DNA of 64,000 nt, taken from Escherichia coli (GTDB taxonomy: Bacteria > Pseudomonadota > Gammaproteobacteria > Enterobacterales > Enterobacteriaceae). Shown piece after piece: positions 38,144 to 40,460 of this stretch. The stretch lies in assembly GCF_003334785.1 (NCBI RefSeq), contig NZ_QOWV01000009.1; one strand, 5' to 3'. Position 1 is the first letter of the stretch. Each line of letters starts with the position of its first letter. The notes below the pieces were generated by a model that had not been told where the DNA came from, did not search any database, and worked only from the letters and a program-made list of their open reading frames with translations. The translations under genes were made by a program, and so were the position numbers.

Positions 38144-38244
38144 TCAGAAACAATTTTCCCAAATTATAGAGACGGAGCTAAAGGCAGAAGTATGATATTT
38201 CGGGTGAGCCATTTTCGTAGCTCACCCGTTAGCACTATCAGGTA

Positions 38245-38565
38245 TCAGGCGGCTTTCTTGAGGCAGGCACTCATAAACTTATTACGATCATCACCTTTCA
38301 GAGATTGTTGTGTTGCTTGATTATTGCATTCGCGCATCTTTTGCTGCTGTGGCGTCAAACTTTTTTCGCCAGGCGCAGACTTGCTGTTCTTCAGGCAATC
38401 ACTCATGTAGGTCTTACGAGCATCCCCTTTCAACGCCTGCGCCGTCGCCTGCTGATTACAGGAGGTCATACGCTGTTGTTGTGGGGTTAAAGTTCTCTCG
38501 GCAGCGCCGACGGTGGTTAAAAAAACCAGACCGAAAAGCAAGGTAACCAGTAATGTTATTTTCAT
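38245..38565 (-). CDS. psiF: Phosphate starvation-inducible protein PsiF
   Basis: ORF-track frame 38245-38583; start placed at MKITLLVTLLFGLVFLTTVGAAER... (106 aa); two internal repeats TPQQQ(R/K)M..CN(Q/N)QAT.Q.LKGD.R; downstream of phoA. Confidence 0.9.
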   Translation of the reverse strand: MKITLLVTLLFGLVFLTTVGAAERTLTPQQQRMTSCNQQATAQALKGDARKTYMSDCLKNSKSAPGEKSLTPQQQKMRECNNQATQQSLKGDDRNKFMSACLKKAA

Positions 38566-38640
38566 AGCACCATCCCTCTTCATGTTTTAACCATGAGCGT
38601 ATGCGCCCGTGATCTGCCATTAAGTCTGGTTGCTAACAGC

Positions 38641-38676
38641 AAAAAAACCACCCGGCAGCGAAAATTCACTGCCGGG
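38641..38676 (-). terminator. Rho-independent terminator immediately after phoA (upstream of psiF)
   Basis: Minus-strand hairpin cccggcag / ctgccggg with 10-nt loop, followed by tggttttttt, starting 8 nt after the phoA stop. psiF lies beyond it, so read-through must be partial or psiF has its own promoter. Confidence 0.6.
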
Positions 38677-38683
38677 CGCGGTT

Positions 38684-40099
38684 TTATTTCAGCCCCAGAG
38701 CGGCTTTCATGGTGTAGAAGAGATCGGTCTGGTCGGTCAGTCCAACAACATTGGCGGCATGCGGGCCATACGCCGCAATACGCAACTGACTGCCGGTATG
38801 TTCTTGTGAATCCTCTTCGGAGTTCCCGTAACTCATCACCATCACTGCGCCATCTTTGGTATTTAGCGCCTGGGTGAGGCCCGGAGCTTTGGTATCCGGC
38901 GCAACAATCTGGCTGGCGTGGGCGTGATCAGCGGTGACTATGACCAGCGTGTTACCCTCCTTTTTAGCGAATTCCAGCGCCCGTTGTACGGCTTCATCGA
39001 GATCGACCGTCTCGCCAATTTGCCCACAAGGATTCGCAGCATGATCCTGTTTATCGATTGACGCACCTTCAACTTGCAGGAAAAAGCCTTTCTCATTTTT
39101 ACTCAACAATTCAATGGCTTTGTCGGTCATCTGCGCCAGGGTTGGTACACTGTCATTACGTTGCGGATTTGGCGTACAGGTGACTGCGGGCTTATCGATA
39201 TTGCCATGGTACGTTGCTTTCGGTCCTAGCCAGCGCACTGGCATATTGCCGTCAGCAAACAGGCCAAGCAGGGGTTTTTGCTGATTCGCTTCCGTCACCG
39301 AATTCAGTGAGGCAGCATCGCTCACCAACTGATAACCACGCGCCTGTGCCTGTTCACGCAGCGTTTTTCCCTGCCATTCACCAGCGGTTGCCGTTTCAGC
39401 AAAGGTTTTTGCGCCGCCGCCAAGCGTAACGTCGGCACGAGCGTTAAGCAGCTGTTCGGTAATCGATCCTTTTCCGCCTTTTTCCAGAGCGTTACCCGGA
39501 CATTTTTCACTGGTCGCGCTCGGACCGTAGCATTTGCGCGAGGTCACATGTGCCACCAGCGCAGCGGGCGTGGCATCCTGCAACTCTGCGGTAGAAACGT
39601 TACCGGTCGCCAGACCTGCGGCTTTTGCCATTTCCAGAATCGTTGGGTGATCTTTTTCGTGAATATCGACGCCCAGCGCGCCGTTATAGGTTTTGACACC
39701 GGTTGACCAGGCGGTTGCTGATGCAGCCGAGTCGGTGACGTAGTCCGGTTTGCCGGTTTTTTTATTCAGCGCATAGTGAGTGTATTGCCCGGTAAGCGGT
39801 AAGGCATCTATACCTTTAAAAAAGCCGCCCGCACCTTCGGCATAATTACGTGCGGCAGTAATTTCCGAGTCCCCCATCCCATCGCCAATCAGCAAAATAA
39901 TATTTTTTGCAGGTTTATCGCTAAGAGAATCACGCAGAGCGGCAGTCTGATCACCCGTTAAACGGCGAGCACCGCCGGGTGCAGTAATATCGCCCTGAGC
40001 AGCCCGGTTTTCCAGAACAGGCATTTCTGGTGTCCGGGCTTTTGTCACAGGGGTAAACAGTAACGGTAAGAGTGCCAGTGCAATAGTGCTTTGTTTCAC
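38684..40099 (-). CDS. phoA: Alkaline phosphatase
   Basis: ORF-track frame 38684-40168; start placed at the GTG giving (M)[50 protein letters not shown]... (471 aa) with the active-site region [12 protein letters not shown]. Confidence 0.97.
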
Positions 40100-40162
40100 T
40101 TTATTTTCTCCATGTACAAATACATTAAAAAATAAAAACAAAGCGACTATAAGTCTCGGCCG

Positions 40163-40179
40163 TGACAACTTTATGACAG
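40163..40179 (-). promoter_or_regulatory. Pho box of the phoA promoter
   Basis: Minus strand reads CTGTCATAAAGTTGTCA, the PhoB-binding direct-repeat pattern, about 65-80 nt upstream of the phoA GTG. Confidence 0.8.
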
Positions 40180-40199
40180 CTGTTGAAAAGATTAACTTT

Positions 40200-40460
40200 T
40201 TACTGACGAGGATGCTTCAATAACTTCTTTACGTAATCGCGCAGCAGCTCCGTATCGTCGTCAGGAATGCTGGCATCGGGCTTTACCTCGTACAGCGCCC
40301 CCTCTACCTGATCAATCAACCGCTGTTGGTCATTTTGCGCCATATTGCGAAGCATTGCAGTGACGATAATCTCCAAAGCTTCTACCTGCGCACACAGTTC
40401 TTTCGACTCTTCTTCTTTTTGGGCAAGCTTAAATAACAACTCAGCAATGAGATTTTTCAT
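40200..40460 (-). CDS. iraP: Anti-adaptor protein IraP
   Basis: 86-aa [43 protein letters not shown]... recognised as IraP. Confidence 0.92.

Follow-up and report, generated by a model that had tools for sequence, protein, structure and literature searches.

How does the phosphate-starvation signal carried by PhoB reach psiF, a gene that follows phoA behind a strong transcription terminator and has no recognisable Pho box of its own? The question was raised by a sequence-only reading of a 64,000-nt stretch of E. coli DNA (the window), which proposed that either regulated read-through of the phoA terminator or an unrecognised promoter brings psiF under control. Our analysis suggests that both routes operate in a modified form: the explanation that we consider likely combines a leaky phoA terminator, which would let PhoB-dependent transcripts through, with a sigma-S-type promoter that belongs to psiF itself.

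The phoA-psiF operon and its PhoB sites

Sequence comparison gives 100% identity between the region analysed here and E. coli K-12 MG1655, and the RefSeq annotation of that genome has adrA, psiF, phoA and iraP in it, each encoded on the minus strand of the window. The alkaline phosphatase gene phoA runs from a GTG start at 40099 to 38684, with its TAA stop at 38686-38684, and psiF, encoding a phosphate starvation-inducible protein of 106 aa, occupies 38565-38245; both agree with the list of open reading frames. The annotation further gives iraP, which encodes an anti-adaptor that stabilises RpoS, at 40460-40200, and phoB (24673-23984) and phoR (23926-22631), also on the minus strand, were recognised from the open reading frame list and their translations. 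Between phoA and psiF lies a gap of 118 nt on the shared strand, in agreement with the distance of about 120 nt noted earlier. Reading the sequence 3' of psiF and upstream of adrA, we found an 8-bp hairpin, GGGTGAGC...GCTCACCC (38202..38227, minus strand), which has no T-run and was not called by the terminator scan.

In 1990, Metcalf, Steed and Wanner reportedly located psiF distal to phoA. Sequence, gene order and Pho box are all alike between our region and the phoA-psiF operon of the E. coli K-12 Pho regulon; the region is this known operon, and in that sense the finding is essentially ordinary. PMC10294691 counts the operon among the reported members of the pho regulon, with PhoB bound upstream and positive regulation of all its genes, and further publications also give phoA-psiF as a single unit.

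A Pho box consists of 18 bp, with two 7-bp CTGTCAT repeats spaced 11 bp apart, and replaces the -35 element. Scanning the 64 kb with the consensus CTGTCATAWAWCTGTCAY at up to 3 mismatches returned 3 matches where 0.17 were expected. One is the PhoB site of the phoA promoter, CTGTCATAAAGTTGTCAC (40179-40162, minus strand; 2 mismatches to the 18-nt consensus), and 10 nt downstream of it the sequence reads TATAGT (40146..40151, minus strand), which we take to be the -10 hexamer of phoA. The others are two overlapping boxes in the phoBR promoter, upstream of phoB (24754-24726, minus strand), so that the earlier claim of a phoBR unit with its Pho box inside the window stands. Published PhoB ChIP-seq sites (PMC10294691) coincide with the phoA box (TGTCATAAAGTTGTCACG, upstream of phoA) and match the phoBR boxes (TTTCATAAATCTGTCATA, sbcD/phoB); they are placed at 401676 for phoA and at 417093 and 417245 for phoB, with none between, and from 332 kb to 417 kb the sole peak is the one upstream of phoA.

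We were not able to identify a Pho box belonging to psiF. In the 3' end of phoA and the intergenic region, a scan allowing up to 7 mismatches gave at best 6-7 mismatches out of 18, which is background level, and none of the 59 phoA-containing relatives has a box with 4 or fewer mismatches between phoA and psiF. The published ChIP-seq (PMC10294691) likewise has no PhoB occupancy at psiF in vivo, which answers the proposal to probe this interval by PhoB ChIP and upholds the original remark that psiF lacks a recognisable box. We accordingly rejected the idea that psiF has a weak or cryptic Pho box nearby. The phoA Pho box survives, now upstream of psiF, in five genomes that have lost phoA (four of Enterobacter and one of Leclercia).

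The window had also been described as holding three Pho-controlled units within about 18 kb. The span is right (17.8 kb from the end of phoR to the start of iraP), but iraP does not fit the description: PhoB is not the route of its response to phosphate starvation, which runs through ppGpp according to the passage of PMC2648988 that cites Bougdour and Gottesman (2007), and in published RNA-seq a phoB deletion alters iraP only 2.4-fold. In a simple random-placement estimate, the chance that any two of 9 operons fall within 16 kb is about 0.22, and several lineages have lost phoA while keeping its neighbours; we therefore rejected the clustering, which is consistent with chance, as a functional signal. 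The operon, its control by PhoB and the closeness of phoA, iraP and phoBR on the map all belong to textbook knowledge, and the observation is of little consequence.

The phoA terminator and probable read-through into psiF

The phoA stop codon is followed, after 5 nt, by a stem-loop of 13 bp (9 of them G-C) with the 4-nt loop AUUU (38678-38649, minus strand; terminator scan and folds). A single G separates the stem from a run of seven T (38647-38641, minus strand; terminator scan). Pairing starts at the 6th nucleotide after the stop and the GC core begins 7-8 nt after it, so the earlier placement of a strong hairpin and U-run at 8 nt comes close enough. The hairpin has a dG of -26.4 kcal/mol, and the fold of the whole intergenic RNA reaches z = -4.1 against shuffles. 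Terminator-like matches as such are not above shuffles in the 2.8-kb region (5 against 3.5), and among the 5 this one is by far the strongest.

Across 58 Enterobacteriaceae sequences, from Escherichia to Klebsiella, the stem is paired in 99.2% of cells and compensatory double changes occur at 4 of the 7 aligned stem pairs; the observed covariation score for the whole structure was reached by none of 500 shuffles. The T-run is also conserved, with 80-97% T at alignment positions -31 to -26 (76 distinct sequences). In genomes with phoA the hairpin has a median of -21.4 kcal/mol and is at or below -12 in 57 of 59, whereas in genomes without phoA it has decayed to a median of -9.0 (4 of 15 at or below -12); the latter represent only about 5 independent phoA losses, and in two of these lineages the hairpin is still intact. 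The stem is therefore tied to phoA. As judged from its structure and covariation, the hairpin 3' of phoA is a genuine intrinsic terminator, and RNA 3' ends are predicted to form at the T-run (38641-38647).

Conceivably the main function of the hairpin is 3' stabilisation: it would be a barrier to exonucleases on a processed phoA mRNA, in the manner of intercistronic REP or stem-loop elements, and phoA would exceed psiF through differential decay and not through termination. Strong 3' hairpins do protect upstream mRNA, and RNA-seq reports steady-state levels only. A pure stability element, however, has no need of a T-run conserved at the canonical position, and we regard this reading as quite unlikely. 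The decay of the hairpin upon phoA loss is expected under either model and does not discriminate between them. A double role, as terminator and stabiliser, stays compatible with the evidence.

The proposal to compare phoA and psiF transcripts is answered by published RNA-seq, as the ChIP proposal was by published ChIP-seq. Counts for psiF were 36,625 and 28,610 in the wild type against 851 and 659 in a phoB deletion, a 43-fold dependence on PhoB. Across the terminator the per-nucleotide RNA density falls to 0.46 of that of phoA, a value for steady-state RNA that could partly reflect differing stabilities of the two segments. Deletion of phoB leaves the RpoS markers otsB, katE and dps as they are in the wild type, and hence the PhoB-dependence of psiF does not run through RpoS; a PhoB effect by that path was rejected.

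These data bear on the idea that there is no meaningful read-through and that psiF is induced wholly from its own promoter, either by a cryptic PhoB site or by IraP-stabilised RpoS. A separate psiF promoter is indeed very probable and psiF is RpoS-dependent (see below), and the product of the neighbouring iraP stabilises RpoS in phosphate starvation. Against this stand the unchanged RpoS markers beside a 43-fold change in psiF, the lack of a ChIP-seq peak or of a Pho box above background at psiF, and the phoA Pho box that phoA-less Enterobacter genomes have preserved upstream of psiF. Induction from the psiF promoter alone is thus extremely improbable. An absence of read-through combined with a PhoB-bound psiF promoter, the outcome set against the sequence-only reading at the outset, did not arise in either part: a psiF promoter very probably exists, but without a PhoB site.

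A further possibility was that read-through is specifically regulated, with a factor, a small molecule or an RNA fold disabling the terminator in phosphate starvation as in an attenuator or riboswitch. For a hairpin of -26 kcal/mol followed by seven T, a per-nucleotide psiF:phoA ratio of 0.46 is high, and GGGTGG before the T-run is conserved beyond what pairing needs. Yet minimum free energy and partition function calculations on the last 150 nt of phoA together with the terminator gave no competing antiterminator fold; the terminator stem dominates in this context with a pairing probability of about 1, and an attenuator-type alternative structure was rejected. Membership in a known RNA family was rejected as well: an Rfam search returned only two chance-level matches (E = 0.74 and 0.8), with E = 0.8 as the best value for a cis-regulatory family. 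Moreover, the hairpin lies 3' of a full-length coding sequence and not in a leader, the ratio comes from one condition only and carries no positive sign of change, and the conserved GTGG, since it persists where the hairpin has decayed, is more readily accounted for by the -35 position of the psiF promoter. We hold regulated read-through to be very improbable. Of the original alternatives, then, read-through and a separate promoter are each supported in part, but nothing indicates that the read-through is regulated, and the phoA terminator looks like a constitutively leaky, operon-internal one. A literature text search on the phoA terminator and the psiF promoter returned nothing relevant.

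A sigma-S-type promoter candidate overlapping the terminator

Twelve nucleotides past the terminator T-run begins a conserved box, CCAGACTTA (38621..38629, minus strand), which from its conservation and its match to consensus we propose as a sigma-S-type -10 element of psiF: C at -13, CAGACT from -12 to -7, T at -6 and A at -5. It was found in 80 of 80 related loci, including those of genomes that lost phoA. In 76 distinct sequences C-12, A-11, T-7 and T-6 are conserved at 100%, C-8 at 99% and C-13 at 96%. Exactly 17 bp upstream of CAGACT stands GTGGTT (38646..38651, minus strand), the putative -35-position element, which shares positions with the terminator's 3' arm and T-run. Its TGG is 96-99% conserved, also in phoA-less genomes with a decayed hairpin, and the spacer between the two elements is variable in sequence and invariant, without indels, in length.

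The box matches the sigma-S consensus TNTGCYAAACTT (-17 to -6; PMC4447067). When CCAGACTT is set against CYAAACTT, 7 of the 8 positions agree, and these positions are 96-100% conserved in the 76 distinct sequences. As a sigma-70 promoter it would be poor, with 3 of 6 positions of CAGACT matching TATAAT and a poor -35 in GTGGTT, and a sigma-70 scan called no promoter at the box. The box also corresponds to positions -13 to -5 of the psiF TSS mapped in Salmonella by SalCom. An RcsB motif 57 nt from the ATG follows this start at a distance of 7 nt, a geometry shared by the Salmonella loci analysed, where CAGACT accordingly falls at -12 to -7; the position of the start was transferred by homology from the arizonae and diarizonae loci and not from SL1344 DNA. 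By the same homology, psiF transcription in E. coli is predicted to start at 38615..38617 (minus strand), 7 nt past the T of CAGACT.

Expression data point in the same direction. In EDL933, psiF ranks within the 100 genes most dependent on RpoS (dependence ratio 73). In stationary-phase MG1655 the log2 signal of psiF is 11.0 in the wild type and 7.4 in an rpoS deletion (about 12-fold), while phoA stands at 6.8 in the wild type, which is background, and at 8.1 in the rpoS deletion. In the phoB deletion, the per-nucleotide density of psiF is 2.2 times that of phoA.

Two genome-wide screens have no sigma signal here: the sigma-factor ChIP-chip and TSS data of Cho et al. 2014 contain no sigma-binding region or TSS from the phoA promoter region to a site inside psiF, and psiF is absent from the 63 sigma-S sites of Peano et al. 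2015. Both screens are incomplete, so they lower the claim of direct sigma-S action without excluding it. The supplement of Romero 2014 has no psiF or phoA entry, and a RegulonDB-derived table (2019) gives solely the phoA-psiF unit with PhoB, the CCAGACTTA promoter not being curated. Taken together, a separate psiF promoter of the sigma-S type, without a PhoB site, very probably exists, and it may be recognised directly by the sigma-S holoenzyme.

Downstream of this promoter, the region from the psiF Shine-Dalgarno (SD) sequence to the start codon, GAAGAGGGAUGGUGCUAUG (38563..38581, minus strand), shows complementarity to the sRNA CpxQ: against the cpxP 3'UTR sequence it forms 9 uninterrupted Watson-Crick pairs (GGGAUGGUG:CACCAUCCC), with further pairs on the flanks. 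CpxQ has been described to bind near the psiF SD, with PsiF repressed (preprint 10.1101/2025.09.11.675593). RNAalifold suggested a UGGU:ACCA helix that would join the tail of the terminator to the box; this was dropped, as its 4 bp are too short and invariant on both sides.

The SD region allows another reading of the conserved box, in which ACCAGACUU is not a promoter element but a cis-acting anti-SD that pairs with AAGGAUGGU and masks the ribosome-binding site of psiF in the phoA-psiF transcript. Over 9 positions 79.8% of cells are paired, the duplex has -13.3 kcal/mol in E. coli and is a perfect 9-bp match in Kosakonia, several Citrobacter genomes have insertions between the two arms as would be expected of an apical loop, and the two variable box positions are those mismatched with the SD. 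Covariation, however, is almost nil, with one double change and both arms near-invariant, and the conservation on the SD side is independently explained by CpxQ pairing. The anti-SD also leaves unexplained the fixed, indel-free spacing to GTGGTT and the conservation of the box in genomes where it would not be transcribed from upstream. In Salmonella, finally, the TSS was mapped downstream of the box, so the psiF transcript there does not contain it. We keep the anti-SD as a minor and doubtful rival of the promoter reading. The two are compatible and do not exclude each other.

Terminator and psiF promoter might form one conserved composite module whose nucleotides have a double use: the 3' arm and T-run of the terminator would be the -35 region of the promoter, while ACCAGACUU, the -10 box, would be transcribed solely in the PhoB-driven read-through mRNA and act there as an anti-SD, so that PhoB- and RpoS-derived mRNAs are translated with unequal efficiency. 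We think such a module unlikely; if it exists, the transcript isoform, and not the amount alone, would tell which stress is present. In this composite reading, the anti-SD ACCAGACUU resembles the CpxQ seed ACCAUCCCU.

A two-input model for psiF and its relation to known systems

In the explanation that we favour, a leaky terminator combined with a promoter of psiF's own, transcription from the PhoB-activated phoA promoter would meet an intrinsic terminator 5 nt past the phoA stop. This terminator would end a large share of the transcripts and let the rest pass, and the leak would bring the PhoB signal into psiF, which itself has no PhoB site. This leak is probably a constitutive one, and a plausible cause is that a ribosome terminating at the phoA stop has the 5' arm of the hairpin within its footprint; in 62 distinct sequences, stop and stem are separated by 0-11 nt, with 5 nt as the median. 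Overlapping the terminator, a sigma-S-type promoter, with GTGGTT on the 3' arm and T-run as its -35 and CCAGACTTA as its -10, would provide a PhoB-independent input both in stationary phase and in stress, when phoA is silent. Since PhoB would act by read-through and RpoS from the gene's own promoter, psiF would combine two signals, and CpxQ would additionally repress its translation at the ribosome-binding site.

The phoA-psiF operon is already known, and the assignment of a psiF promoter is a small addition to it. What is gained is a concrete, conserved promoter candidate, CCAGACTTA, which overlaps the terminator and accompanies the known RpoS-dependence of psiF; a phoA terminator that is conserved by covariation and decays in phoA-less lineages is of modest added value. 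psiF may thus serve as a compact example of PhoB, RpoS and CpxQ inputs on one gene. The results have potential use in the annotation of the psiF transcription unit and for genetic parts built on the phoA terminator region.

The phoA terminator can be compared with terminators occluded by ribosomes. According to the tR2 experiments of Li et al. (PMC4824070), a terminator that follows a gene by a few bp is almost completely repressed in vivo. The phoA stem, 0-11 nt past the stop, lies in the range of distances repressed in those experiments, although, unlike what they describe, termination after phoA is clearly not abolished.

The psiF promoter candidate resembles sigma-S promoters of the -13C, CYAAACTT type (PMC4447067) in its C at -13, -12 and -8, its A at -11, its T at -7 and -6, its weak -35 and, in many species, an A/T-rich discriminator. 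It shares with them rpoS-dependent expression. It differs from the consensus at position -10, which is G in E. coli and not A, and from known sigma-S promoters by the lack of a sigma-S ChIP signal at the site in the two genome-wide studies; Salmonella is so far the only source of a mapped start.

Operon-internal, partly efficient intrinsic terminators are known to set the ratio of proximal to distal expression, for example in rpsU-dnaG-rpoD and rplKAJL-rpoBC. As in these operons, a hairpin followed by a U-run stands between two co-directional genes, and the distal gene, psiF, depends on the upstream promoter and has the lower RNA level (0.46 per nucleotide). Unlike them, the phoA terminator overlaps the -35 position of a promoter that would serve the distal gene.

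The phoA terminator

The 2.8 kb around phoA and psiF match E. coli K-12 MG1655 with 100% identity, and the same 2.8 kb were found in 5,426/5,426 complete E. coli genomes searched; in the clinical E. coli MLI108K1 and MLI108K2 an IS1 insertion within the adrA-psiF-phoA-iraP stretch splits the match in two. RefSeq annotates proC, adrA, psiF, phoA, iraP and ddlA in this region, and both the annotation and the ORF list place iraP (40460-40200), phoA (40099-38684), psiF (38565-38245) and adrA (38143-37028) on the minus strand. The sequence-only reading had described a strong hairpin with a U-run just past the phoA stop, and psiF about 120 nt further on the same strand. Both descriptions hold: in the consensus scan a 13-pair stem (38678-38649, minus strand; 9 G-C pairs, 4-nt loop, dG −26.4 kcal/mol) precedes a single G and a run of seven T (38647-38641), pairing starts at the sixth nucleotide past the phoA TAA, and the psiF ATG lies 118 nt after the phoA stop.

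For comparison, psiF loci of 80 Enterobacteriaceae species were collected and the genes around them mapped. The stem was compared in 58 distinct intergenic sequences between phoA and psiF: pairing holds in 99.2% of cells, and 4 of 7 aligned stem pairs show both-sided changes (for example C-G to U-A and G-C to A-U). For the whole structure, 0/500 shuffles matched the covariation score, and shifting the partner by 1-3 columns lowered pairing to 21-54%. When the 150 nt at the 3' end of phoA are included in the fold, pairing probability in the stem stays at ~1 and no competing fold appears; no Rfam family matches the terminator region. Because the stem covaries, lacks a competing fold and belongs to no Rfam family, the hairpin reads as a conserved, canonical intrinsic terminator; the dominant stem and the absent alternative fold speak against an attenuator.

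Downstream of psiF, an 8-bp hairpin without a U-run (GGGTGAGC/GCTCACCC, 38202-38227, minus strand) lies 60 nt ahead of adrA. Cho et al. give an adrA TSS at 402757 (U00096.2 coordinates), within the 3' part of psiF.

PhoB input to psiF

Scanning the 64 kb with the Pho-box consensus at ≤3 mismatches gave 3 matches (0.17 expected), namely the phoA Pho box (40179-40162, minus strand) and two overlapping phoB boxes (24754-24726, minus strand). The best match in the phoA 3' end and the intergenic region has 6-7 mismatches of 18, which random sites in the window also reach by the hundreds, so that psiF indeed has no recognisable Pho box; E. coli and all phoA-containing relatives examined lack one at psiF. 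The additional PhoB site that ChIP might have revealed is absent from published ChIP-seq, which places PhoB upstream of phoA (401676) and at phoB, with no site between them (PMC10294691).

The phoA-psiF pair is among the reported pho operons (Fitzgerald et al., PMC10294691). DESeq2-normalised counts in that study were 318,602/301,623 for phoA in wild type versus 1,490/1,607 in the phoB deletion, and 36,625/28,610 versus 851/659 for psiF, from which we calculate a 43-fold PhoB dependence of psiF. An indirect effect through RpoS was rejected because otsB, katE and dps, which classically depend on RpoS, are unchanged in the phoB deletion. Since psiF has neither a PhoB site nor a Pho box, the PhoB signal must reach it by read-through of the phoA terminator. 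The wild-type psiF:phoA ratio per gene length is 0.46, a steady-state RNA value that possibly includes stability differences.

We found no evidence that this read-through is regulated, as the sequence-only reading had offered as one of two possibilities; read-through itself is supported by the PhoB-dependent psiF RNA, and the other possibility, an unrecognised promoter, now has a conserved candidate and rpoS-dependent psiF expression in its favour. In 62 distinct sequences, 0-11 nt (median 5) separate the stop codon from the stem, and a passage in PMC4824070 describes a terminating ribosome as almost completely repressing, in vivo, a terminator a few bp past a gene; it is plausible that the phoA terminator would leak in this way.

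Upstream, the phoA Pho box starts 21 nt past the iraP stop, with no terminator-like hairpin in between (40180-40200, minus strand). Transcription of iraP may run into phoA and could explain the basal level of phoA RNA that remains when phoB is deleted.

A candidate sigma-S promoter for psiF

Twelve nucleotides past the T-run lies a box, ACCAGACTTA (38630-38621, minus strand), that is kept in 80/80 loci. A search for E. coli TSS data on psiF found none; in Salmonella SL1344 the psiF TSS is given as 437138 (SalCom; table in PMC7913699). In that table an RcsB motif, TGGGATATTTCCCA, begins 57 nt ahead of the ATG, and the TSS precedes it by 7 nt; our two Salmonella loci both have the motif, likewise 57 nt ahead of the ATG, exact in subsp. 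diarizonae (L024) and with two mismatches in subsp. arizonae (L015). This geometry puts CAGACT exactly at −12 to −7, with C at −13.

In a gap-free alignment of 76 distinct sequences, C-12, A-11, T-7 and T-6 are each 100% conserved, C-13 96%, C-8 99% and A-5 97%, and conservation of the TGGTTTTTT block (−34 to −26) is 80-99%; positions −10 and −9 are free to vary, as is the 12-nt spacer. Such conserved elements at fixed distance, with a stretch between them whose length is constant and whose sequence is free, have the signature expected of a promoter. The box agrees with the sigma-S-dependent consensus TNTGCYAAACTT (−17 to −6), in which C at −13, −12 and −8 and T at −6 are absent from sigma-S-independent promoters (Peano et al.); CCAGACTT matches CYAAACTT at 7/8 positions and the Citrobacter variant CCAAACTT at 8/8. 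CAGACT is a poor sigma-70 hexamer and GTGGTT, at the −35 position, a poor −35 element; a sigma-70 promoter scan did not call the site, and it is absent from two genome-wide sigma-S binding studies.

In stationary-phase MG1655, psiF reaches log2 10.9-11.1 in wild type versus 7.0-7.8 in an rpoS deletion (PMC3923258 Table S7). The signal of phoA stays at background level in wild type (6.7-6.9), and the deletion shows, if anything, a higher value (PMC3923258). Transcription of psiF is therefore rpoS-dependent and occurs without phoA in this phase. In the phoB deletion, psiF density per nucleotide is still 2.2 times that of phoA. We propose, as a candidate assignment, that a conserved sigma-S-type psiF promoter overlaps the 3' side of the phoA terminator.

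The box could also, non-exclusively, act as an anti-SD: its complement lies in the psiF Shine-Dalgarno region, with ~80% of cells paired. Almost no covariation accompanies this pairing, which makes it only a minor rival to the promoter, and conservation from SD to ATG has a separate explanation. The sRNA CpxQ, from the cpxP 3'UTR (L082 701-757), is complementary to the stretch 38563-38581 (minus strand), with nine contiguous Watson-Crick pairs (GGGAUGGUG:CACCAUCCC) and two flanking 5-bp blocks; a 2025 preprint reports CpxQ binding of psiF near the SD and repression of PsiF (10.1101/2025.09.11.675593). This pairing probably explains the near-invariance of GGATGGTGC(T/A)ATG across genera.

Insertions and deletions are abundant downstream of the box in relatives. 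Two Citrobacter loci (L016, ~3750-3950; L068, ~3860-3960) carry 100-250 nt insertions between the −10 box and the psiF RBS, that of L068 resembling an ERIC/IRU-type repeat (…CCCCAGTCACTTACCTGAGTCAGTGACTGGGGTGAGC…); large insertions are tolerated in the psiF leader.

Natural phoA losses and the neighbouring units

Loss of phoA with psiF kept was found in 14/80 genomes (~five independent losses), and L023 has a disrupted phoA. In these 15 phoA-less loci the hairpin is mostly decayed (median dG −9.0 kcal/mol versus −21.4 in phoA-containing genomes), and GTGGTTTTTT and CCAGACTTA are kept in 15/15. Functionally, the stem goes with phoA, and the T-run region and box with psiF.

In five genomes (L056, L060, L061 and L066, Enterobacter cloacae complex; L076, Leclercia; ~3680-4000) an internal deletion of phoA leaves its Pho box, −10 region, first codons and last codons ('CTGAAATAA'), and therefore puts psiF ~280-315 nt behind the PhoB-dependent promoter. 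The four Enterobacter genomes have a weakened stem (−6 to −13 kcal/mol). In L015 and L024 (~3650-3780) phoA is missing, and its 5' untranslated region remnant holds a long near-perfect inverted repeat with arms of ~27 nt (...CCATAGCCGCTTCGTTTTTATTTT / AAAATAAAAACGAAGCGGCTATGG...); the Pho box there is degenerate, with no match at ≤4 mismatches. One locus labelled 'Chryseobacterium sp. 18061' (L027, CACSKA010000001.1) has an enterobacterial ddlA-iraP-psiF-proC order and a PsiF 87% identical to that of E. coli, and is evidently mislabelled or contaminated.

Three Pho-controlled units had been claimed within ~18 kb. The span stands (17.8 kb for phoBR, phoA-psiF and iraP; from ORF list and translations, phoB is at 24673-23984 and phoR at 23926-22631, both minus strand), and phoBR and phoA-psiF are PhoB targets. 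The claim fails for iraP, which changes only 2.4-fold in the phoB deletion and responds to phosphate starvation via ppGpp (Bougdour and Gottesman 2007, as cited in passages of PMC2648988 and PMC3511308). With ~nine pho operons placed randomly on a 4.64-Mb chromosome, the chance of some pair within 16 kb is ~0.22. Several lineages do without phoA and keep its neighbours. The iraP-phoA-psiF adjacency is kept in all phoA-containing genomes examined; one interpretation is that IraP stabilises RpoS and RpoS drives psiF. In stationary-phase MG1655, iraP (b0382) is itself at log2 10.8-12.5 in the rpoS deletion versus 7.6-8.9 in wild type, and phoA (b0383) is likewise slightly higher (PMC3923258 Table S7), which suggests RpoS feedback on iraP or earlier phosphate/ppGpp stress in the mutant.

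The observation from sequence is thus confirmed and its interpretation partly supported. The finding is ordinary: this is the phoA-psiF operon as already known, and the terminator inside it is conserved and leaky. For psiF, a RegulonDB-derived table gives only the phoA-psiF unit with PhoB. The sole increment is a concrete promoter assignment and the comparative evidence behind it.
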